Positions 6,104-58,663 of a stretch of 58,663 nt of DNA are shown here, piece after piece. The position numbers and the translations under genes are program-made. This stretch comes from Candidatus Woesearchaeota archaeon (lineage in GTDB: Archaea; Nanobdellota; Nanobdellia; Pacearchaeales; GW2011-AR1). Below the pieces are notes generated by a model. The model was not told the DNA's origin. It did not search any database and saw only the letters and a list, made by a program, of their open reading frames with translations. The stretch covers positions 1 through 58,663 of the forward strand of contig CAZAIT010000001.1 of assembly GCA_964485325.1 (NCBI GenBank). Reading direction: 5' to 3'. The stretch's first letter is position 1. Each line of letters starts with the position of its first letter.

Positions 6104-6553
6104 ATGAGAGTGAATATTAAGAAGCGTGGACTTTCCCCTGTTGTTGCTACTGTTTTGTTAATATTAATGGTTGTTGTTGTAATATCTATGATATTTGTTT
6201 GGGCTCGTGGATTTTTTGAAGATCAAACTGAAGGTTCTGAAAGACCAGTTGGAGAGTTATGTTCTTCTGTTGATTTTATAGCAAATATAGTTGTTGGTGG
6301 GTTAGAGATTGTAAATAGAGGAAATGTAGATATTGATGGATTCGAAGTAAAAAAATCTTTAAATGGTTTATCTGAAATTGAAAAAATTAATACTGGTGTT
6401 TCTGCTGGAGATAATTTAATAAAAAATACCTTTACTAAAGAAATGGGCAATGGGGATACTCCTGAAAGGATTGAGATGTTTGCTGTTTTAAAAGAATCTT
6501 CTTCAGAAAATACATTTACTTGCTATAATGATCCAGAATTTTTGGTTATCTAA
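6104..6553 (+). CDS. archaeal type IV pilin-like protein (class III signal peptide)
   Basis: N-terminus MRVNIKKRGLSPVVATVLLILMVVVVISMIFVW (KRG/LSP prepilin site plus hydrophobic helix). Paralogue of the ORF at 36265. Confidence 0.75.
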   Translation: MRVNIKKRGLSPVVATVLLILMVVVVISMIFVWARGFFEDQTEGSERPVGELCSSVDFIANIVVGGLEIVNRGNVDIDGFEVKKSLNGLSEIEKINTGVSAGDNLIKNTFTKEMGNGDTPERIEMFAVLKESSSENTFTCYNDPEFLVI

Positions 6554-9414
6554 ACTTTTAGACTTATTATTTTAGAAATATTTTCTTGCATACTTACTCC
6601 ATAGAGGCTTGATGTTTCTGATATTAGTGTATCGTTGTGGGTTATTATAATATATTGTCCGCTTGTCATGTATTTCTTTATTAGAGCTGCTAGAAGTTCT
6701 GAATTGTGTTTATCAAGGGCTGCATCAATTTCATCAAAAACATAGAAGTGATAGGGTCTATATTCTTGTATCGCGAATATTAAAGACAAAGCAACCATAG
6801 TTTTTTCTCCTCCTGAAAGAGATGTAATATCAAAATATTTACCACGAGAAGCTTTGATTAATATGTTTAATCCTCCATCAAGTGGACCTTTTTTATCTTC
6901 TAGTTCTAAAAATATATAACCCTTCTTAGATAGCTGTGAGAAATTTCTCGTGAAATATTCATTAATTGCGTTTAGAGTTGTTGTAAATGCTTTCTTTTTC
7001 TTTTTATCTATCTCTGTAATTATGTTTTGTATTTTGTCTTTTTCTTGTAGAATGATTTCTAATTTACCTTGTATTAATTCTACTTGCTCATTTATTTTAT
7101 CGAATACTTCTAATGCCCTTAAGTTAATATTACCTAGTCTTGATATTCTGAATTGTGATTTTTGAAGTTTTTCCCTTACCTGATCTGCTGGAAGCGATAA
7201 GATATCAACGTTTCCTAATTCTAATAACTCAGATTTTAATGAATCTACTTGTGCATTGAATTGAGCTTTTTGTATTTTATTATTATTAATCTTGTCTTCT
7301 AGATTTTTTGTAGTGTGTTGCATTCCTATTATATCTGTTTCTAAAACTTTTTGTTGATCTTGTAATTCGTTTCTTTGATCAAAGAATCCTTGTGCTTTCT
7401 GATATAGTTTTTGTTCCTCAATTTCTTTTTTCACAGCTTCTTTATCTTTCTCTGTTATAAGTATTTCAATTTTTCTAAGTTCAACTTCAGATTCTTCTAT
7501 ATCTCTTTCTATAGATTTTGATTCAGCTGAAATTCTATTTATTTCTCTCTTTTTGACAGTTATTTCAGTATCTACATCAATATCTGCAAAAGACATTTCC
7601 TGTAAAGATAATTTTGCATCACCATAATTTTCTTCTATATTTTTTAATTTTTCATATTCTGATTTTATCAAATGGAGTTTTTTATTTGTTGAGGCTAATT
7701 CTTCTCGTGTTTCTTCTTGATTTTTTGTTATTTGCTTTATTTGTTCTCGTTTTTCTTCTGAGTTATTTAGTTTTACTTGATTAATATCGAGTTCATTTAA
7801 TTTGGTTCTTAACGCTATTAGACTTTCTTCAAATCTTTTCATACCTTCTTCCATTTTCTTTTGAATAATTTTATTTTTTTCATATTCTGATTTTGAGGAA
7901 TCTATTTTTATATTTGCAGTGGTTGATATTTTGTGTTTATGTTCATCTGTAACATCTTGCTTACATATTGGACAAGATTTTAATTGAACGATTTCTGTTT
8001 TTAATTTTTCTTCTCTTGTTATTTCTGTTTCTAGAATAGCGTTTCTTCTTTCTTTTTCTAACATCTCTTTCTCTAACTTAGATATTTTTTCTACTGTAGA
8101 ATTAATTTCCGATTTTACCTCTGTTTTTAATTTTTCATTTTCTTCTATAGATTTTGTATATTTTATTTCATAAAATAAAGAAGTAATTGATTGTTCTATC
8201 ATTTGTATCTCTTTTGCTGATTCCATTAGAAACTTCTCTTCTATATTTTTTTTATTTTCTATTGTTGATAAATTAGATTTTAAAATATAGAATTTTCTTC
8301 TTTCTTGTTCTAAGATGTCTAATTTTTTTTCTAGAGTTTTTTGTTGTTCCTGTTGTTTTTTTATTTCTGGAGAAGTTGTTTGTATCTCTGATATTTCTGT
8401 ATTAAATTTTTCTAATTTACTTCTAAAATTTATTATTTTTTCTTTCCCTTGAATCATTCTATTATCAAAATTTTCACGCCTTACATCTAGGCCTGCAAGG
8501 TCTGCTTTTAAATCTGAAATTTCTCTATGTAAAACTTCTTGTTCATTGCTAGTTGAAGACTGAATCTGCTTATTTATTATTAAAATTTTATCTTGTAATT
8601 TATCTACATTAAAATTTTTCTCGTAAATTTGCTTTTTGATTTTTTCAATTTCTATATTACATCGTTCTATAGTCTTTTCAATCTCTATAATTTCTTTTTC
8701 TTTGATATTTTTTGTTTTTGAAAGTAATGTTGATTTACATTGCTTTATTGACATTTCTAATTTTTGATATGAGATAGCTTCTTGTCTTTCTTTATCTAAG
8801 TTTTTTAGATAGGATTTTCTTTCTCTTAGAATCGCCGAGACTTCTTTGAATTTCTCTTCGGTTTTCTCGAGTTCTCTTAGTGATTTGTGTTTCCTAGTTT
8901 CATATATTGAAATTCCAGCAACTTCTTCTATTATTTTTCTACGTTCATCTGGTGTAGATTTTACTAAGGATTGAATTTCTCCTTGGAGTACTATATTAAA
9001 TCCATTTGGATCAATTCCTGCTTGTGCCATAAGTTCTAAAACATCTTGTCTGTTTTTTGTTTGTCCATTTATCCTATATATTGATTGTCCAGTTTTTCTA
9101 ACAGTCCTTTTGATTACGACTTCTTTTGTTTCTATCCCAAACGTTTTGTTAGAATTATCAAAAGTTAATTCTACCATTGCCTCCATTGAACCCTTGTAAG
9201 CTTTGTTCCCAGAAAATAATAAGTTTGCTGCTTTTGTTGCTCTGATTGATTTAATTGAAAGTCTACCTAGCACAAAACAGAGAGCGTCGGTGATATTAGA
9301 TTTTCCACTTCCGTTAGGGCCTACTATTACATTCATAGAATTTTCAAATGGGATTTCGGTTCTCCTTGCAAATGATTTAAATCCGTGCATCACGATTTTT
9401 TTTACATAAGTCAT
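6550..9414 (-). CDS. smc: SMC-family ATPase with SMC-type heads and a central CxxC hook instead of a hinge
   Basis: Walker A GPNGSGKSN, NIVLQGEI, signature LSGGEKT, Walker B FYVFDEIDAALD. The middle is continuous coiled coil with CPIC at residues 481-484 of 954 (nt 7963-7974). Confidence 0.85.
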   Translation of the reverse strand: MTYVKKIVMHGFKSFARRTEIPFENSMNVIVGPNGSGKSNITDALCFVLGRLSIKSIRATKAANLLFSGNKAYKGSMEAMVELTFDNSNKTFGIETKEVVIKRTVRKTGQSIYRINGQTKNRQDVLELMAQAGIDPNGFNIVLQGEIQSLVKSTPDERRKIIEEVAGISIYETRKHKSLRELEKTEEKFKEVSAILRERKSYLKNLDKERQEAISYQKLEMSIKQCKSTLLSKTKNIKEKEIIEIEKTIERCNIEIEKIKKQIYEKNFNVDKLQDKILIINKQIQSSTSNEQEVLHREISDLKADLAGLDVRRENFDNRMIQGKEKIINFRSKLEKFNTEISEIQTTSPEIKKQQEQQKTLEKKLDILEQERRKFYILKSNLSTIENKKNIEEKFLMESAKEIQMIEQSITSLFYEIKYTKSIEENEKLKTEVKSEINSTVEKISKLEKEMLEKERRNAILETEITREEKLKTEIVQLKSCPICKQDVTDEHKHKISTTANIKIDSSKSEYEKNKIIQKKMEEGMKRFEESLIALRTKLNELDINQVKLNNSEEKREQIKQITKNQEETREELASTNKKLHLIKSEYEKLKNIEENYGDAKLSLQEMSFADIDVDTEITVKKREINRISAESKSIERDIEESEVELRKIEILITEKDKEAVKKEIEEQKLYQKAQGFFDQRNELQDQQKVLETDIIGMQHTTKNLEDKINNNKIQKAQFNAQVDSLKSELLELGNVDILSLPADQVREKLQKSQFRISRLGNINLRALEVFDKINEQVELIQGKLEIILQEKDKIQNIITEIDKKKKKAFTTTLNAINEYFTRNFSQLSKKGYIFLELEDKKGPLDGGLNILIKASRGKYFDITSLSGGEKTMVALSLIFAIQEYRPYHFYVFDEIDAALDKHNSELLAALIKKYMTSGQYIIITHNDTLISETSSLYGVSMQENISKIISLKV

Positions 9415-9491
9415 GGATGGATTAGGAAAATAGGGTTTTTAAAAATTTATACGAGTAAAAATATTTATAAACATGTTTAATATCTAATTTT

Positions 9492-10013
9492 ATGAATAAA
9501 TTACATTCTGGAGCTAAATGGTCATTCCGATTCAAAGGATATGCAACATTTCTTTTTTTAGTATTCTTTTTATCTTGGGCTATTATTCCTACATTCGGAT
9601 TTGCGGGAGCTTTGTTTTCTAGTTCTGGAAGTTTTATAGGAATTGTTGTAGCAGGTATTATTTCTTATCTTATTTTTGCAATTATTGTTTCTGAAATTTA
9701 CGCTAGGATGGCTTATAGTAGATGGTTTTATGAATTTACTAATACAAATTTAAAAATTGAAAAAGGTATAATTTGGAAGAAATACTCTAATGTTCCTTAC
9801 GAAAGAGTTCAAAATGTTGATATTCATCGTGGTATTTTGGCTAGAATGTTTGGATTTTCTTCAGTTGCAATTCAGACTGCTGGATTATCATATAGTCGTC
9901 GTGGTGGTGCTGGCGCAGAAGGATCTATTCCTGCGGTAGATACTAAGCGTGCAGAAGAGATTAGGGAATTTTTAATGAAAAAGATTAGTAAGTCTCATGG
10001 GCAAGGAATGTGA
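9492..10013 (+). CDS. membrane protein with bacterial-type PH (YdbS/YdbT-like) domain
   Basis: Two N-terminal TM helices, then YEFTNTNLKIEKGIIWKKYSNVPYERVQNVDIHRGILARMFGFSSVAIQTAG, typical of bPH_2/DUF304. Confidence 0.6.
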   Translation: MNKLHSGAKWSFRFKGYATFLFLVFFLSWAIIPTFGFAGALFSSSGSFIGIVVAGIISYLIFAIIVSEIYARMAYSRWFYEFTNTNLKIEKGIIWKKYSNVPYERVQNVDIHRGILARMFGFSSVAIQTAGLSYSRRGGAGAEGSIPAVDTKRAEEIREFLMKKISKSHGQGM

Positions 10014-10673
10014 TTAAAATAATTTCTGTTGATTTACTTTTTTAGCTTTAATCAATTTTTTAACTGTATTCCAAGAAAATCTAATTATTTGTTCATATTT
10101 TTCGTTATCAAAATTATTTAAAATGAATTCTTTTGTTTTGGGATCTGCAGGATATCCTGACCCAAAGTCAACTCCAAATTTTTTTCTAAGTTTTTTCATT
10201 TCATCTTCACGTTTTTCTTTGGCGAAAATTGATGCAGCTGATACGACTGGATGATTATAATCAGCTTTATGTTCACAAGAAAGATTTATTATTTCTGGTC
10301 GTTCTATTAGTTTCTGTACATCGTTTGACCATGCTTGGATATTTACAGATGGACAATCTACAATTACATCTACTTTTTCATTTATATCTTTTGTGAGTTT
10401 ATTAATTATTTTTGCTGTTTTTATGGCTTCTAAATAATTAAGATTTGAAGATTTATCTATTTCTTTCGGAGAACTGGTTTCAATATGGTGTTTAAATTGA
10501 GATACCATGTTTTCTTTTATTTCTTTTCTTCTGGTTGGTGTTAAAAGTTTTGAATCTTTTGCTCCAAGCTCTTTTATTATTCTTTCTTTATCTGATTCAA
10601 TTAAAACACCTGCTAAAATCATTGGTCCTAAAACTGGACCACGTCCTGCATCGTCAATACCTAGAAGTTTCAT
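10014..10673 (-). CDS. rnhB: ribonuclease HII
   Basis: MKLLGIDDAGRGPVLGPM active-site start, later SAASIFAK and SGYPAD motifs. Confidence 0.9.
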   Translation of the reverse strand: MKLLGIDDAGRGPVLGPMILAGVLIESDKERIIKELGAKDSKLLTPTRRKEIKENMVSQFKHHIETSSPKEIDKSSNLNYLEAIKTAKIINKLTKDINEKVDVIVDCPSVNIQAWSNDVQKLIERPEIINLSCEHKADYNHPVVSAASIFAKEKREDEMKKLRKKFGVDFGSGYPADPKTKEFILNNFDNEKYEQIIRFSWNTVKKLIKAKKVNQQKLF

Positions 10674-52520: not shown

Positions 52521-53432
52521 ATGAAACTTGATGAGAATTTAGTAGCAGTTCATGCTTATTTATGTGGTGATGGGTATGTTATACAAAATCCGAAAATGCA
52601 AAAGAAAAAATATTATATGATAGGATTTAGAAATACCAATTTTGTTTTATTGAAAGATTTTCAGAATAAATTTGAAAAAACATTTGGGAAGAAGCCCTAT
52701 ATTACTAACGAGGGGAGGTGTAGGATTGGGTCAAAAGACATTTACAAAAAATTAACCGAAAATTTTGGGAGTTTTTATTCTTACTATTGGGTATTCCCAA
52801 AGTTGAGTGATAGATTTTCTAGAATTTGGCTTAGAGCGTTTTTTGATTGTGAAGGCTGGGTTGTTTGTAAGAGTCACCAGAGTAGATGTATAGGGCTAGA
52901 TTGTGTTAATAAAGAGGGGATATATAAGATTAAAAAGGCATTAGAAAATATCGGAATAATGTGTAAGATTAGAAGTAGAAATACTCGAAATATATTTTCG
53001 TTAGGTATTTTTGGAAAAGAAAATTTAATTAAATTTAGAGATGAAATTAATTTTTTACATCCTTTAAAAAAGAATAAATTGGATGAAGTTATAAAAGATT
53101 TTGTTAATTATAATTGGGAATTCCCCATAAGGAAAAACGAATTAAAAGATTTTATTAAAAATATATTTAGGGATAAAGCAAAAGTCAAAAGAGGAAGTTG
53201 GGTTGTTAGAATAGTTTCGAATAAAGAAAAGAATTTAATTCAATTGCAGAAAAAATTAGATAATTTATTTAATGTAGAGTCTAAAGTGAATGTGAATAAA
53301 AATGGAATTGGAACTGTTTATTATGAAATGAGTATCAACAAAAAAGAAGAGATTAGAAAACTAATTAAATATGGTTTAATAAGCGAGAATGAGAAGAAAA
53401 AATGGTTAAGTTCAAAAAAATCGATGACGTGA
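52521..53432 (+). CDS. free-standing double-motif LAGLIDADG homing endonuclease
   Basis: Dodecapeptide motifs LVAVHAYLCGDGYVI and WLRAFFDCEGWVV. 3' end overlaps the rtcB start by 31 nt. Confidence 0.8.
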   Translation: MKLDENLVAVHAYLCGDGYVIQNPKMQKKKYYMIGFRNTNFVLLKDFQNKFEKTFGKKPYITNEGRCRIGSKDIYKKLTENFGSFYSYYWVFPKLSDRFSRIWLRAFFDCEGWVVCKSHQSRCIGLDCVNKEGIYKIKKALENIGIMCKIRSRNTRNIFSLGIFGKENLIKFRDEINFLHPLKKNKLDEVIKDFVNYNWEFPIRKNELKDFIKNIFRDKAKVKRGSWVVRIVSNKEKNLIQLQKKLDNLFNVESKVNVNKNGIGTVYYEMSINKKEEIRKLIKYGLISENEKKKWLSSKKSMT

Positions 53433-54805
53433 CTTGGAAAATAGAAAAAGAAGGAAAAATGAATGTTCCTATAATTGTTTATGCGTCTGAAAAGTTGTTA
53501 GAAAAAATAAAACAAGATGATACTATGAAACAAGCTATGAATATGGCATCGTTGCCGGGCGTTTTGGAGAATGTAATCGTTTGTCCAGATGCTCATCAAG
53601 GATATGGCGCATGTATTGGTGGAGTTGCTGCATTTGATATCGAAGAGGGTGTTATTTCTCCAGGTGGCGTTGGTTATGATATAAATTGCTCCGTTCGTTT
53701 ACTGAAGACAAATTTAAATATAAGGGATTTAGCTGGAAAAGAAAAAGAAATTTCCAAATCATTATTTCTTGCTATACCTTCGGGAGTTGGGAGAAAAGGG
53801 AATATCCTATTGAATAATAGAGAATTAGATAAGGTTTTAATTAATGGAGCACAATGGGCTGTTGAAAAAGGGTACGGCATAAAAGATGATTGGATTCATA
53901 CTGAAGAAGAAGGGAAAATCACTGGAGCTAATCCCTCATCTGTATCTCAGAGAGCTAAGGGAAGAGGGTTGCATCAGTTAGGATCTCTTGGCGCAGGAAA
54001 CCATTTTATAGATATTCTCGCTGTTGATAAAATTTTTGATAAAAATATCGCAAAGGTTTTTGGATTGGAAGAAGGCCAGATTGTCATTTTAATTCATTGT
54101 GGATCTAGAGGGCTTGGACATCAAGTTGCCTCAGATTATATTAGATTAATGGAAGATAAATATGGTTATCCAAGTTTTGATAGGAGTCTAGCTAATGCTC
54201 CAATTAAGTCTAAGCCTGGTAAAAAATATTTTGAGGCGATGGCTTGTGCTGCTAATTTTGCATTTGCGAATAAACAAATAATTACACATCTTATTAGAGA
54301 AGAGATGAAAAAGTATTTTTCAAATTTTAAGGCAGATGTGGTATATGATGTTTGTCATAATATTGCGAAGTTTGAGAAATTTAACGAAAAAGAAGTCTTA
54401 GTAATGAGAAAAGGTGCGACTCGAAGTTTTGGCCCTGGGAGGATTGAAGTTCCAGAAGATTATAGAAAAGTTGGACAGCCTGTTTTGATACCTGGGTCTA
54501 TGGGAACTGCGAGTTATGTTTTATGCGGCACAAAGAAAGCAGAAAAAATTTCTTGGGGTTCAACGGCTCATGGTGCAGGTAGAGTTAGAAGTAGAAAAGA
54601 AGCTCATAAAAAAATGAGTTTTGAAAAAGCAAAAGAAGATATGGAAAAACGTGGAGTTTTTGTTGAATTTGGAGGGCAAAAAGGTTTAATTGAAGAATCA
54701 CCTTTTTCATATAAAAATATTGATGAAGTTGTTAGAATTTCAGATGAGGCTGGGCTTGGAAAGAAAATTGCGAAGCTGAAGCCGTTAATTGTTATAATTG
54801 GATAA
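53402..54805 (+). CDS. rtcB: RNA 3'-phosphate ligase RtcB
   Basis: CPDAHQGYGACIGGVAAFD, GYDINC, GAGNHF, HCGSRGLGHQV, SAPF-like C-terminus EESPFSYKNIDEV. Confidence 0.92.
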   Translation: MVKFKKIDDVTWKIEKEGKMNVPIIVYASEKLLEKIKQDDTMKQAMNMASLPGVLENVIVCPDAHQGYGACIGGVAAFDIEEGVISPGGVGYDINCSVRLLKTNLNIRDLAGKEKEISKSLFLAIPSGVGRKGNILLNNRELDKVLINGAQWAVEKGYGIKDDWIHTEEEGKITGANPSSVSQRAKGRGLHQLGSLGAGNHFIDILAVDKIFDKNIAKVFGLEEGQIVILIHCGSRGLGHQVASDYIRLMEDKYGYPSFDRSLANAPIKSKPGKKYFEAMACAANFAFANKQIITHLIREEMKKYFSNFKADVVYDVCHNIAKFEKFNEKEVLVMRKGATRSFGPGRIEVPEDYRKVGQPVLIPGSMGTASYVLCGTKKAEKISWGSTAHGAGRVRSRKEAHKKMSFEKAKEDMEKRGVFVEFGGQKGLIEESPFSYKNIDEVVRISDEAGLGKKIAKLKPLIVIIG

Positions 54806-54837
54806 GATTTAAATAGTATATTCTTTTTACTAAATGC

Positions 54838-57800
54838 ATGAGAAAAAGGATGATGCTTGGCTTTATTTTGCTTTTATTTATTGGATTTGTTAGTGCTGGA
54901 GCGTGTGAACCAAGCCAAACTATTATGAAGTTATATAGTGCTTCAAATTCACATGGTGCTTTATGGGATGATATAACCTATAATTATGATATTTGTTATG
55001 ACGAAATTTTTGGTTCCGAATATACTGGAGAGAATCGACACGATTGTAGTGGTGCGAATGGGATTTTGAGTCTGTCTTCTATTACTAATGCGCATGCTTC
55101 TAGTGATGCAGATCTCTTATATGTGGATGAAGTATGTTATGGGGACTTGAGGTGTATTTATGATTCTAATGAAGGAGATTCTTGTAGTAATGGTGGAGAG
55201 ATTGTAGCAAAAATGTCTAGTGAATATAACGCCCATATTTCAGATGCTTCTGAGACTAATTATCCCGTAAAGGTTTGTTGTAAGACTGGTATAAAATTAG
55301 TAAGTATAGGTTTTGATACTACAGGGAGAACAATTAATAAAGATGATTTTGTGGAATTTGAGGTAACTGCTACATATACTGATGATAGTACTGCATTAAT
55401 TATCCCTACTTCATGTGCTTCAGCAGATGAGTCAGTAGCGATAAAAGTTGCTGGAACAGTGTGTAAGTTTAAAGGGAAGGCAGTTGGTGATTCGGTAATT
55501 ACTGCTAATTATACAGATGAAGATGGTACAAAGACTGCGGTAATTTTATTAACAGTTATACCAAAAGGTGTAGTGGGTTGCGATAAAATTATTTTAACAC
55601 CGATAGGTGGAAATTCAATAAAAGTATCTGACACTAAGATATATGCTGTAAACTTAACTTATACAAATGGTGTTACAGAATCTATTACATTTGATTCTTC
55701 TCTCTCTTTAATATCTTCTAGTACTGATGTGGCTACAGTTGGAGGTCTCATTGCAACTGGTGTAGGAGATGGAGAAGCAGATATAATTGCTACATATTCT
55801 AGTAGTGCTAAATGTGGCGATAGTGAGTACAAAAAGATATCTACTTTATATGTTAATAAAGAGTTATCATCAATACGAGTTAATCAAAGAGATCCAGAAA
55901 TAAATATAGGAAGTAATATTGGATTCACTGTAGATGCTATATATAGTGATGGAAGTCGTTCCGATTCTATTTTACCAACATCTTGTATTTCAGAAAATTT
56001 ATCAGTCGCAGAAAAAGTATCGGGGTCAACATGTTCTTTTGAAGGTATAGCTGAAGGAGAAACAACTATTAATGTAAATTATACTTCTTCTGATTTTATT
56101 ACAAAAAGTGATTCTGTTAGATTAATTGTTTTGGCTGATGGTGTTATAACTTGTCGTTCACTATCTATTTCTCCAGCTACATCTACACCAATAAAAGTAG
56201 GTGGTATAAAAAATTATTTTGTTAATTTAACTTATTCTGATGGTACCATTGAAGACGTTACAGATAGTGAAAATTTGATAATATCTTCAGAGGATCCAGA
56301 AGTAGCTACAGTTGATGGAATTATTGCGACAGGTACTAAGAAGGGTAACACTAGAATTATTGCAAGTTACACAGATACTGATTGTTCTCCATCTGAAGAT
56401 GCCTCTACTTTAATTGTTGAGAATGAGTTATCGTCTATAAGTATCTCACCAGAAGAAAATACCGTTAACGTGGGCGTCTCGGCTGAATTTACTATAGAGG
56501 CTACGTATACGGGTGAAAGTGATCCTTCTCCAATTGTTCCTACGTCTTGTGTTTCTTCAGATGATTTGGAAATAGAAAAAATAGTAGAGAAAATAAGTAC
56601 ATGTACTTTTAGGGGTTTAGCAATAGGCGATGTTACTATTACTGCTAAATATTCTGATGGCATTGAAAGAAGTGCTACTGCATCATTAAGTGTTTCTGCT
56701 CCTGGCAGTGTTGATTGTGGTAGTTTGGTTATAACTCCGGTAGGAACCTCTCCAATTTTTGTTTTTGATTCTATAAGATATTTAGTTAATAGAACCTATT
56801 CTGATGACAGTACTGAGGATGTTACAGGTGGTGCTAGTTTTATGTCTGAAGATACTGGAGTTGCAACAACTTCTCTTATTAATAATCAAGTTATAGGTGC
56901 AGGAAAAGGAACTACAAGAATTATTGCTAGTTATTCTGATGATATATGTACTCCTTCTAGTGGGAAAATTAGTTTAAGTGTAGTTCCAAAGTTAAGAAGT
57001 ATACAAATTACTCCAAATAATCCTGAACCAAGTGTAAACGTAAATAGGGAAATTGAGTTTAACATAGTTGCTAATTATAATAATAATGATAATAAAGCTG
57101 TTACTAATGAGCCGGAATTAATATGTACTTCCTTAAATGAATCAAGGGCGATAAAAGTGGGAGATGGTGGATGTATTTTTAGAGGTGTTGCGATGGGGCC
57201 TGTTCTTATTGAGGCTAATTATACTGAAGGAGATATTACGAGAAGTAGTTATTCCTCTTTAAATATTGAAGCAGAAGGTGTTCGACATTGTTCAATGCTT
57301 CAAATTATTCCAATTGCTTCCGCTATTAACATTGAAGAATGGAAAGATTATTCTGTTAATTTAATTTATTCTGATGGGGACACTGAAGATATTACGGATT
57401 TAGCGGAGTTGACATCTGGAGATGAAGATATAGTTACTATTGTTGGAAATAGAGCTACCGGAATAAAAGTTGGAGAAAGTATCATGATTAATGCTAGTTA
57501 TTCTGATGGTGGATGTATTCCGTCTGATGCCACGGCTATTTTGGATGTCAATCGAGAAGCTGAATTGATTAGTATAGCATTTATTCAGAGTAGTGGAACT
57601 GTGAATATAGAGGATACGTTTTCTTTTAATGTCACCGCTACCCATTCTGATGATGTGACTACTATAATTCCTATGACGTGCCATTCTCCTGATGAATCAA
57701 AAGTAGAAAGAATTACTGGATGTACGTTCAAGGGACTATCTGAAGGCTCAGCATCTATTACAGCCAGCCTCACTGAGAATGGAATTACTAAGACTGCTTC

Positions 57801-58663
57801 TGTTTCTTTAACTGTTTTAGCTGATGGAGTTATAGCTTGTTCTGGCATTATTATTACTCCAAATAAATATTTATTAGAGGTAGATTCGAATAAAGAATAT
57901 ACTGTTAATTTAACTCGTACTGATGAGAGTACCGAGGATATTACAGATAGTGAAAATTTGATAATATCTTCAGAAGATTCGGAGATAGCTACCATTGAAA
58001 GTAATGAGGTGACTGGTGTAAGTGTTGGGTCCACTAATATTGTTGCTGAGTATTCTGTAACTGGCTGTGGTCCTTTCAAAATTAGCTCTCCATTAACTGT
58101 TTTTGAAATACCAGAGGCTTATTGGGAAGATGCGAGTGGTAATTCTATTACTGAGGCAGATTTGGGAGATACGGTTAAAATGATTGCGGTTAGTGAATCT
58201 ACAATTTTTGAAGTTTGGGAAGATGATCCTCTTTTTGATGATGAGATTAGAACAGGCACAAATGCAATAATAGGTGGTGTGGATGGGGATAGAGTTATTG
58301 GAGTATGGACTATAACACAAGAAGACATAGATAAAACAGAAGATGGAGACTTGGACGGATTTCAATTTAGAATTGGAGAAGTAGGAAAAAGACAGGAAAG
58401 CGGTTTATTAAAGGTCAATACAGATTCTGGATATGACTCTGATGGTGATGGTTTAACAGATTATGACGAAGATAATTTATATAATACTAATAAAACTTTA
58501 CCAGACACAGACGGTGATGGATTTGATGATGGTACAGAAATTAACAATGTTCCACGAACTGATCCCAATGACCCTACTGACCATCCAGTTGCTACTCCAG
58601 GTGACTCTGATGGTGATGGTTTAACAGATGATGAAGATCCAAATCCAAATAACCCAGACACAG
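54838..58663 (+). CDS. giant secreted adhesin-like protein (3' truncated by window edge; at least 1275 codons)
   Basis: My manual translation from ATG 54838 stays open to the last base. Signal peptide MRKRMMLGFILLLFIGFVSAGA, three N(S/A)H Cys-containing repeats, five roughly 189-aa di-Ig (Big_2-like) units, then DxDxDGxxDxxD (TSP3-like) Ca-binding repeats. Missing from the ORF track because it has no stop. Confidence 0.85.
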   Translation, partial: MRKRMMLGFILLLFIGFVSAGACEPSQTIMKLYSASNSHGALWDDITYNYDICYDEIFGSEYTGENRHDCSGANGILSLSSITNAHASSDADLLYVDEVCYGDLRCIYDSNEGDSCSNGGEIVAKMSSEYNAHISDASETNYPVKVCCKTGIKLVSIGFDTTGRTINKDDFVEFEVTATYTDDSTALIIPTSCASADESVAIKVAGTVCKFKGKAVGDSVITANYTDEDGTKTAVILLTVIPKGVVGCDKIILTPIGGNSIKVSDTKIYAVNLTYTNGVTESITFDSSLSLISSSTDVATVGGLIATGVGDGEADIIATYSSSAKCGDSEYKKISTLYVNKELSSIRVNQRDPEINIGSNIGFTVDAIYSDGSRSDSILPTSCISENLSVAEKVSGSTCSFEGIAEGETTINVNYTSSDFITKSDSVRLIVLADGVITCRSLSISPATSTPIKVGGIKNYFVNLTYSDGTIEDVTDSENLIISSEDPEVATVDGIIATGTKKGNTRIIASYTDTDCSPSEDASTLIVENELSSISISPEENTVNVGVSAEFTIEATYTGESDPSPIVPTSCVSSDDLEIEKIVEKISTCTFRGLAIGDVTITAKYSDGIERSATASLSVSAPGSVDCGSLVITPVGTSPIFVFDSIRYLVNRTYSDDSTEDVTGGASFMSEDTGVATTSLINNQVIGAGKGTTRIIASYSDDICTPSSGKISLSVVPKLRSIQITPNNPEPSVNVNREIEFNIVANYNNNDNKAVTNEPELICTSLNESRAIKVGDGGCIFRGVAMGPVLIEANYTEGDITRSSYSSLNIEAEGVRHCSMLQIIPIASAINIEEWKDYSVNLIYSDGDTEDITDLAELTSGDEDIVTIVGNRATGIKVGESIMINASYSDGGCIPSDATAILDVNREAELISIAFIQSSGTVNIEDTFSFNVTATHSDDVTTIIPMTCHSPDESKVERITGCTFKGLSEGSASITASLTENGITKTASVSLTVLADGVIACSGIIITPNKYLLEVDSNKEYTVNLTRTDESTEDITDSENLIISSEDSEIATIESNEVTGVSVGSTNIVAEYSVTGCGPFKISSPLTVFEIPEAYWEDASGNSITEADLGDTVKMIAVSESTIFEVWEDDPLFDDEIRTGTNAIIGGVDGDRVIGVWTITQEDIDKTEDGDLDGFQFRIGEVGKRQESGLLKVNTDSGYDSDGDGLTDYDEDNLYNTNKTLPDTDGDGFDDGTEINNVPRTDPNDPTDHPVATPGDSDGDGLTDDEDPNPNNPDT

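Follow-up and report, generated by a model that had tools for sequence, protein, structure and literature searches.

The stretch that we analyzed (the window, 58,663 nucleotides) is the whole of contig C1 of a 646 kb, 38-contig MAG that is 79 % complete and contains an archaeal SRP RNA. The organism is a DPANN archaeon of the Pacearchaeota/Woesearchaeota type with a DPANN-sized genome, and a related-loci search with a six-sequence alignment found relatives of the locus described here in Pacearchaeota, Woesearchaeota and Nanoarchaeota MAGs. A separate S-layer-like ORF is present on contig C5. At the end of C1, a forward-strand reading frame starting at ATG 54838 continues for 1275 codons and runs off the contig, its translation being free of in-frame stops to the last base, as had been proposed in a preliminary description made from the sequence alone. 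The ORF track missed this gene because the ORF listing shows it only if open-ended ORFs are allowed. The minus-strand ORFs listed opposite it had been dismissed as antisense shadows, and they are indeed by-products of strong codon-position bias; of the four, one is disrupted in the allele of a sister strain. The features of the locus are as follows.

54809..54816, forward strand: TATA-box-like TTTAAATA, 22-29 nt upstream of the ATG, read from the sequence
54838..58663, forward strand: 5′ part (1275 codons) of a gene of ~1715 codons, the rest of which is on contig C7 (bases 2-952 plus the stop)
54838..54900, forward strand: predicted Sec-type signal peptide (MRKRMMLGFILLLFIGFVSAG), the sole hydrophobic segment; same arrangement in orthologues
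54901..55287, forward strand: N-module, residues 22-150, a triplicated ~46-aa unit and putative distal binding head
~54904-55044, 55045-55182 and 55183-55287, forward strand: the three N-module repeats
55297..58119, forward strand: five di-domain units, that is, ten Big_2-type Ig domains, residues 154-1094, in the linker between the N-module and the YW domain
56258..56291, forward strand: 34-nt tract in unit 2, encoding TDSENLIISSE
56800..58150, forward strand: block strongly divergent from the sister allele, units 3B-5, with nearly or fully identical flanks
57941..57974, forward strand: 34-nt tract in unit 5, identical to that in unit 2; spacing 1683 nt, in frame
58111..58422, forward strand: YW domain, residues 1092-1195, a family-specific predicted beta-sandwich
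58423..58663, forward strand: start of a TSP3-type repeat array, in which DxDGDG occurs three times in full and a fourth motif begins with its first two residues (DT)

The 3′ end, for which the preliminary description had looked to an extension of the contig, is not lost, as the same assembly contains it on contig C7. The join between C1 and C7 rests on synteny and on a JGI metagenome contig of a sister strain, whose full-length allele (P0002/L015) is a 1711-codon ORF spanning the end of C1 and the start of C7. Bases 1-10955 of C7 match this contig at 99.92 %, and the C7 ORF is identical to the sister allele over 317 of 317 amino acids; the gap, with its size taken from the sister allele, spans ~367 nt and would encode 123 aa of TSP3 repeats. 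Read together, these sequences describe one gene of ~1715 codons, which is split over C1 and C7 because the assembler broke within near-perfect TSP3 repeats. A contig that stops inside repeats, in a genome of 38 contigs, could also point to a long ORF that is an assembly chimera or a decaying pseudogene with artefactual repeats. We regard this reading as essentially refuted, with only the slightest probability left to it: the independent JGI contig is collinear across the whole gene and through the complete 1711-codon ORF, there are no stops in frame, dN/dS is below 1 in every part, and every domain folds or matches a profile. The original claim of one large, modular surface-protein gene with a secreted product is supported. 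Given what is generally known of archaeal promoters, the TATA-box-like element suggests that this gene may be transcribed from a promoter of its own into an mRNA with a short leader or none.

Profiles built here place the protein in a family defined by four domains that occur in the same order: the N-module (E 4e-54) and YW (E 8e-28) in the window protein, and D3 (E 4e-34) and D4 (E 1e-30) in the full-length allele, whose sequence in this part equals that of the C7 ORF. Congeners carry compact, ~450-aa genes of this family downstream of rtcB, in which the four core domains are contiguous, and the order T2SSF–rtcB–family gene–d310–PKD protein is kept among them; the 54838 gene is their positional orthologue. 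The linkers between N-module and YW and between YW and D3 are where it departs from its relatives: in 198 of these the median lengths are 5 and 4 aa, whereas here they reach 942 and 322 aa, longer than any others in the set. The first holds the ten Big_2 Ig domains and the second, in the full-length allele, twelve TSP3 repeats. Both arrays thus appear to have been inserted exactly into short inter-domain linkers of the core, and the gene is best understood as a compact, position-conserved four-domain protein stretched by two spacer arrays.

YW directly follows the N-module in almost all relatives, is modeled with pLDDT >90 in a compact orthologue, and has no match in Pfam or NCBIfam; the distinct domain that the preliminary description had quoted as EAYWEDASGNSI is this conserved family domain. 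D3 and D4 of the compact orthologue show no match to PKD (PF00801/PF18911) and only a weak one to Big_7 (E 0.054), and the equivalent position is occupied by PKD_4 in 30 of 56 more distant relatives. With the whole-chain orthologue model, Foldseek returned only generic Ig/FN3/macroglobulin beta-sandwich matches, which are uninformative on function.

The three N-module repeats around N-[SA]-H that had been quoted from the sequence are present and mutually homologous (hhalign probability ~98 %, E 1e-12 to 1e-13), with the unit consensus C-x5-[IV][ML]-x-L-x4-N-[SA]-H-x8-Y-x3-[IV]-C-[YC] and eight conserved Cys, and the earlier remark that they could not be assigned to a family holds, with no matching model in Pfam or NCBIfam. 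The module is nevertheless widespread, with 1147 cluster representatives: within the phylum, 93 of 400 genomes carry it (about a quarter of those sampled), as do 13 of 24 congeners. It is also highly conserved, including three invariant N-x-H motifs and a fourth invariant His, although conservation of its N, H and Y residues could reflect a role in the structure instead of in ligand binding. Its eight Cys would form four disulfides, with the pairs assigned from Cys co-loss; in the numbering of the protein, the predicted pairs are C23-C53, C70-C100, C116-C147 and C106-C148. Lipoprotein anchoring through the Cys that follows the signal peptide was considered and rejected, since this residue sits in a poor lipobox and shows covariation with Cys32, its putative disulfide partner.

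AF2 predicts the N-module structure with high confidence (pLDDT 95.1, pTM 0.88), and Foldseek finds no neighbour of the predicted fold in PDB or BFVD. The top, non-significant matches are beta-trefoil lectins (ricin-B type; BEL lectin, PDB 4i4o), which likewise consist of ~130-150 aa in three homologous repeats that each conserve polar and aromatic residues. The three-fold internal repeat of that class is clearly present in the N-module (hhalign 98 %, E ~1e-13), but the twelve-stranded fold is not: we count ~8 predicted strands, or ~2-3 per repeat rather than the 4 of a beta-trefoil, the QxW motif is missing, and the N-module has its four predicted disulfides. As the best PDB match has E 1.4 and a TM score of 0.20, the module is without detectable similarity to the beta-trefoil fold. 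The domains that co-occur with it are binding modules only (PKD, LamG, CBM96, discoidin and MopE). A widespread, unnamed, Cys-rich module with a confidently predicted fold and no solved match is therefore a candidate for a host-binding head.

The Ig and TSP3 arrays themselves are ordinary. The five di-domain units start where the preliminary description had put them (55297, 55864, 56428, 56992 and 57565), with lengths of 567, 564, 564, 573 and 555 nt, and are 36-43 % identical to one another in amino acid and 52-59 % in nucleotide sequence. Their assignment as Big_2-like held up in the HMM check for the whole protein (32 bits vs a cut-off of 22.8), while single domains score 12.9-22.1 bits against Big_2 (PF02368), none reaching the cut-off alone and four of the ten having Big_2 as their top match. 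The Calx-beta search that had been proposed alongside it gave no match on the protein. The ten-domain profile also matches the solved Big_2 structures of LigA (8gyr, E 3e-12) and LigB (2mog/2mqg, E 1e-10) and, at E 1e-30, the Ig-domain array in a teneurin-like protein (PDB 9ifo/9pt5). Among full-length proteins, those closest to the array are Big_2 proteins from bacteria, which share 25-31 % identity with it. In Leptospira LigA/LigB and other bacterial Big_2-repeat surface proteins, tandem Big_2 domains likewise form the stalk of a secreted surface protein. Unlike these, the present protein is archaeal, has neither a lipobox nor a beta-barrel anchor, carries a conserved Cys pair in each of its ten Ig domains, and has its array inserted in an unrelated four-domain archaeal core, with an N-module head that is unrelated to the Lig C-terminal region.

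For the acidic repeats, the TSP3-like assignment is borne out by the C7 continuation, which scores 68.5 bits (E 4e-19) against TSP3_bac (PF18884, cut-off 25); the part in the window alone reaches 21.4 bits, below that cut-off. In the full-length sister allele the array has 12 DxD[GN]D[GR] motifs and is 36 % D+E, and we class it as TSP3-type and predicted to bind calcium. Bacterial TSP3-repeat proteins such as Myxococcus CglD, which belong to a calcium-binding class, have similarly paired DxDGDG-type repeats, but the CglD match is weak (E 3e-10, 38 bits vs a cut-off of 400) and the repeat is the only common part.

How such a protein is held at the cell surface is suggested by its neighbor. The signal peptide that had been recognized in the window (MRKRMMLGFILLLFIGFVSAGA) is indeed the only hydrophobic segment of the whole protein; the 1711-aa allele ends in ...SASLRIEIP and has no archaeal C-terminal anchor, either a TM helix or of the PGF-CTERM type. 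The next gene, d310, encodes a Cys-rich type-I membrane protein of 310 aa with a signal peptide and a C-terminal TM, for which neither Pfam nor NCBIfam contains a match. In ~40 of 203 relatives, D4 runs straight on into a fused d310-like module, which makes the d310 product the probable anchor of the 54838 protein; fusion in other lineages suggests, rather than proves, this partnership.

The 34-nt identity between units 2 and 5, noticed in the preliminary description, is real: no such match is expected by chance, it is the longest identical run between any units (other pairs share only 7-16 nt), and with the proteins fixed and codons redrawn its probability is 3e-4. The tract is thus non-random and fits the short gene conversion that had been suggested. 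The conversion would not be recent, because the same pair of 34-mers is present in the sister allele despite a difference of 25 % in its unit 5. The two alleles do not differ in their core parts, and the divergence elsewhere is mosaic with raised dS. Positive selection in unit 5 is not supported (dN/dS 0.5-0.9, raised dS), and conversion from paralogue to paralogue left no signal as a source of the divergent allelic block; the genome contains the Ig unit, YW domain and N-module nowhere outside this gene, and therefore no internal donor was found. We also considered whether the hypervariable unit 5 and the 34-nt tract might be the work of a diversity-generating retroelement (DGR), a kind of element reported to act on surface proteins of DPANN and CPR organisms. 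This reading is rejected as having next to no likelihood: no reverse transcriptase (RVT_1) match is found in the genome (79 % complete), and the substitutions, instead of being adenine-specific, are mostly transitions, show symmetry and fall at every codon position, with raised dS.

Our explanation for the locus as a whole, which we consider fairly probable, is that one split DPANN gene of ~1715 codons encodes a Sec-secreted, stretched surface protein with an anchor, a stalk and a head. The product would be a disulfide-rich, modular cell-surface protein whose C-terminal part, D3-D4, is held at the membrane by the d310 product. The Ig array would form a stalk, possibly tens of nm long (an estimate from typical Ig-domain size), and the N-module, with its three-fold pseudo-symmetry, would sit at the free N-terminal tip as the ligand-binding head and most likely bind a molecule on the surface of a host or partner cell. 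Recombination from strain to strain, together with short intragenic conversion, may diversify the stalk units nearest YW. We infer the roles of head, stalk and anchor, like partner binding and host adhesion, from this arrangement; the adhesin function is suggested by the types of domain.

Two other roles deserve consideration. The protein might instead be a structural component of the envelope, S-layer-associated or a spacer, with the conserved compact core serving to build or brace the envelope while the arrays do no more than set spacing. The position of the core beside housekeeping genes in many congeners, its wide occurrence in the phylum and the identity of its parts between alleles are consistent with this, and Ig-rich, TM-less S-layer proteins have been proposed in another DPANN archaeon (bioRxiv 10.1101/2023.10.27.564410). 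We nevertheless find it rather unlikely, since an essential part would hardly be expected to occur as patchily as this (13/24 congeners and 93/400 genomes), copy number and architecture vary greatly, the partner domains are of lectin type, and the S-layer-like ORF on C5 is a separate gene. Less likely still, and quite improbable in our view, is a secreted or tethered scavenger or a metal/calcium-binder, in which a His-rich N-module chelates a metal or nutrient and TSP3 binds calcium. The four invariant His (three of them in N-x-H motifs), the MopE-like metal-binding motifs that co-occur in 3 of 56 relatives and the acidity of the TSP3 array would all suit such a role, but it would hardly account for a membrane partner or for a stalk of ten Ig domains, and no transporter is linked to the gene neighborhood.

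The surface-protein reading has parallels among other DPANN archaea. The SPEARE giant proteins of Nanohaloarchaeum antarcticus are reportedly large secreted proteins of an episymbiotic DPANN archaeon. To our knowledge, the hosts of Pacearchaeota and Woesearchaeota are mostly unknown, and many of these archaea have no demonstrated host. In Nanobdella aerobiophila, putative surface proteins with Ig-like folds and lectin domains have been described (bioRxiv 10.1101/2023.10.27.564410). The 54838 protein resembles both sets in being large, secreted and Ig-rich, and host contact has been proposed for all of them. The likeness is one of architecture: the 54838 protein adds the N[SA]H module, the combination of Big_2 and TSP3 arrays and a separate gene for the putative anchor, and, unlike the Nanobdella/SPEARE set, is without protease, pectin-lyase or nuclease domains.

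The mechanism by which DPANN archaea recognize and grip their partner cells is unknown (PMC11329633), and the locus offers a concrete, widespread and unannotated candidate for this recognition in the form of a 130-aa, three-fold repeated, putatively disulfide-bonded module. We can put forward only tentatively, as a possibility that we doubt more than we believe, the broader proposal that the N[SA]H module is an undescribed fold serving as a general host- or ligand-recognition head in DPANN archaea of the Pacearchaeota/Woesearchaeota type, with Ig and TSP3 spacers tuning its reach in different lineages and the Cys-rich membrane anchor separated by gene fission. If true, the module would be a handle for finding the hosts or ligands of these uncultured archaea. 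The fission/fusion link, for its part, names a probable membrane anchor, and a single genomic position provides a natural comparison in which the same core is found either compact or stretched by ~1260 residues.

This locus is of note for an unnamed head domain that may have a new fold, for a pair of orthologues of which one is compact and the other stretched, for an apparent split between a surface protein and its probable membrane anchor, and for recovery of the full-length gene. The preliminary description proposed that a giant adhesin gene missed by the ORF track starts at ATG 54838; the observation is confirmed, and its interpretation is partly supported. The plus-strand frame is open through the final base of the window (1275 residues), and was missed because it is listed only when open-ended ORFs are allowed. 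The window is the entire contig C1 of a 646-kb genome (38 contigs, 79 % complete). The features around the gene are:

Upstream (5'): archease, T2SSF gene, LAGLIDADG ORF, rtcB
52521-53432: LAGLIDADG ORF, overlapping the start of rtcB
53402-54805: rtcB
22-29 nt 5' of ATG 54838: TTTAAATA box
54838 to window end, plus strand: focal gene
L015 (sister-strain contig) 6538-10216, equivalent to about 1008-4686 of contig C7 of this genome: downstream gene pair, conserved beside the family gene in congeners

Used as query in an exhaustive search, the N-terminal module retrieved P0002, a full-length sister-strain allele of 1711 aa that is 99 % identical across that module and whose whole ORF lies on L015, a 59.6-kb JGI metagenome contig beginning inside rtcB. 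The end of C1 aligns with L015 1-5163 and C7 1-10955 aligns with L015 5531-16485 (99.92 % identity), and C7 starts with an open 317-aa frame identical to the P0002 C-terminus at 317/317 positions. The 367 nt of L015 in between code for 123 aa of near-perfect TSP3 repeat pairs; such repeats are a classic cause of contig breaks, which would explain this one. From the sister strain and synteny we infer that C1 and C7 join and that the focal gene, about 1715 codons counted from the first ATG, is complete on the two contigs.

The N-module, the putative head with three N[SA]H-centred repeats, occurs in 13 of the 24 same-genus genomes searched, mostly in ~450-aa proteins comprising, in order, a signal peptide plus N-module, then domains termed YW, D3 and D4. 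What had been described as a distinct domain, EAYWEDASGNSI, is the YW domain of these congener proteins, and their D3-D4 match the focal gene's C-terminus on C7. Compact and focal genes also share a locus order: T2SSF, rtcB, family gene, 310-aa Cys-rich protein gene, PKD protein gene. When the four core domains were mapped in 198 family members, using profiles from 52 homologues, the linker between N-module and YW had a median of 5 aa but reached 942 aa in the focal gene (next largest, 338 aa), and that between YW and D3 had a median of 4 aa but reached 322 aa (next largest, 124 aa). These lengths and the shared locus identify the focal gene as the positional orthologue of the compact four-domain protein, and by sequence comparison two spacer arrays appear to be inserted exactly into linkers of its core. 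The compact orthologue is predicted to fold with a whole-chain pLDDT of 91.2, its YW, D3 and D4 domains being generic beta-sandwiches. One 443-aa orthologue, P0174, is labelled 'Methanococcoides sp. SA1', but its 569-kb contig is DPANN-genome-sized and could belong to a symbiont whose genome was deposited under the name of its host.

The spacers themselves are ordinary. The five repeat units begin, as described, at 55297, 55864, 56428, 56992 and 57565 (567, 564, 564, 573 and 555 nt) and are 36-43 % identical to one another in protein and 52-59 % in DNA. Their assignment to Big_2 Ig domains holds for the summed array (32 bits against a gathering threshold of 22.8) but for no domain singly. A profile of the ten domains matches solved LigA/LigB Big_2 domains (E 1e-10 to 1e-12) and a teneurin-like Ig array (E 1e-30); the nearest full-length relatives are bacterial Big_2 proteins (25-31 % identity), and no donor copy was found elsewhere in this genome. 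The acidic repeats are indeed TSP3_bac (21.4 bits for the window part, 68.5 for the C7 part), with 12 motifs in the full-length allele. Residues 1-1190 contain 11 N-glycosylation sequons, all within the Ig stalk (55297-58119) and none in the N-module or YW.

Compared with the sister allele, the focal gene is a mosaic: identity is 99 % over the N-module and unit 1, 91 % in unit 4, 75 % in unit 5, and 100 % in YW, TSP3 and the C-terminus. In the divergent block dS is raised too (0.18), with dN/dS about 0.5, and rtcB is also mosaic (dN/dS 0.18). Raised dS and the mosaic rtcB fit a history in which a divergent strain recombined with this lineage and constraint was relaxed; positive selection is not proven. 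Both a DGR and conversion from paralogous units were rejected as sources of this allelic divergence. Over 53501-54250 of rtcB, stretches that differ at 9-21 positions per 150 nt are interspersed with identical ones.

The same 34-mer occurs without any mismatch at 56258-56291 and 57941-57974, where chance predicts zero such pairs; it is still unlikely when the protein sequence is kept constant (P = 3e-4), and the pair is intact in the sister allele as well. These results make the proposed gene conversion between units 2 and 5 plausible as a short event, but one that predates the strain split or has been maintained since.

The minus-strand ORFs opposite the gene are by-products, as had been suspected: the plus frame has an extreme codon-position bias (73 % A+G at position 1, 53 % T at position 3), which accounts for them. 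One of the four antisense ORFs is disrupted in the sister allele. The antisense ORF 57585-58079 (-), 164 aa, is open there too, although the sense protein is 25 % diverged, an effect probably due to RNY-like codon bias, in which first codon positions rarely carry T/C.

The protein starts with a signal peptide, MRKRMMLGFILLLFIGFVSAGA, and the three N[SA]H-centred strings follow in the translation. This N-module, which could not be assigned to a family, has no Pfam or NCBIfam match, yet it is common, with 1147 cluster representatives at E<=1e-3 (663 at E<=1e-10), and is present in 93/400 high-quality genomes and 78/280 genera of the phylum. Two other genomes of the phylum have it within giant open frames, of 18,112 aa in one and 6,986 aa in the other (G408:C1:252642-253034, G105:C8:34628-34921). 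A ~46-aa unit is present in triplicate (repeat-versus-repeat hhalign E about 1e-13), each with invariant N, H and Y; the module has eight conserved Cys, and, judging from which of these are lost together among homologues, each repeat appears to hold one disulfide, with a further one acting as a clamp. AlphaFold2 predicts the window's own module with high confidence (44 sequences; pLDDT 95.1, pTM 0.88). Foldseek found no neighbour of this model in BFVD or in the PDB (best E 1.4, TM 0.20; the top, non-significant PDB matches are beta-trefoils), making it a candidate new fold relative to these two libraries.

The signal peptide is the focal protein's sole hydrophobic segment. Next downstream is the gene for a 310-aa type-I membrane protein, which combines a signal peptide, 22 Cys and a C-terminal TM helix and lacks any Pfam match, and the gene after that encodes an 899-aa PKD type-I membrane protein (TM helix 760-790; basic cytoplasmic tail of about 110 aa). 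In fused family members, the C-terminal extension can be aligned with the 310-aa protein from one end to the other (best E 4e-11). By profile, a similar module is present in about 40/203 relatives, mostly right after the core domains, usually D4, although three of these fused members were among the sequences that seeded the profile, and some matches may score too high because of Cys-rich composition. This fusion/fission pattern makes the 310-aa neighbour the probable membrane anchor of the focal protein and would place the N-module at the distal tip.

Among 56 diverse relatives, the N-module is accompanied only by binding modules (PKD, LamG-type lectin, CBM96, discoidin, MopE, GLUG) and never by enzyme domains. 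The host is a DPANN archaeon, judging from an archaeal SRP RNA within the window, a protein with a class-III signal peptide on contig C9, and the focal gene's relatives, found exclusively in Pacearchaeota, Woesearchaeota and Nanoarchaeota MAGs; cultivated DPANN archaea are known to be episymbiotic. The protein might instead be a structural part of the envelope, or a metal or nutrient binder; the Ig stalk, calcium-binding array, distal head and episymbiotic habit of cultivated DPANN make surface binding or adhesion the best reading, as an inferred role.

The C9 protein (locus L005, about 20.3-21.6 kb) starts with a pilin-type signal peptide, MRGKNGISAIVATVLIILITVAAV..., followed by TSP3 repeats with 79 % DNA identity to those of the focal gene and then by Cys-rich CGNG...EECD repeats. 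At the end of contig C5, on the minus strand, an 861-aa open-ended frame starting GVALIGMTVGVASAAAYPAPFASNTAIVVGANAAPSDG... looks like an S-layer-type protein distinct from the focal gene.
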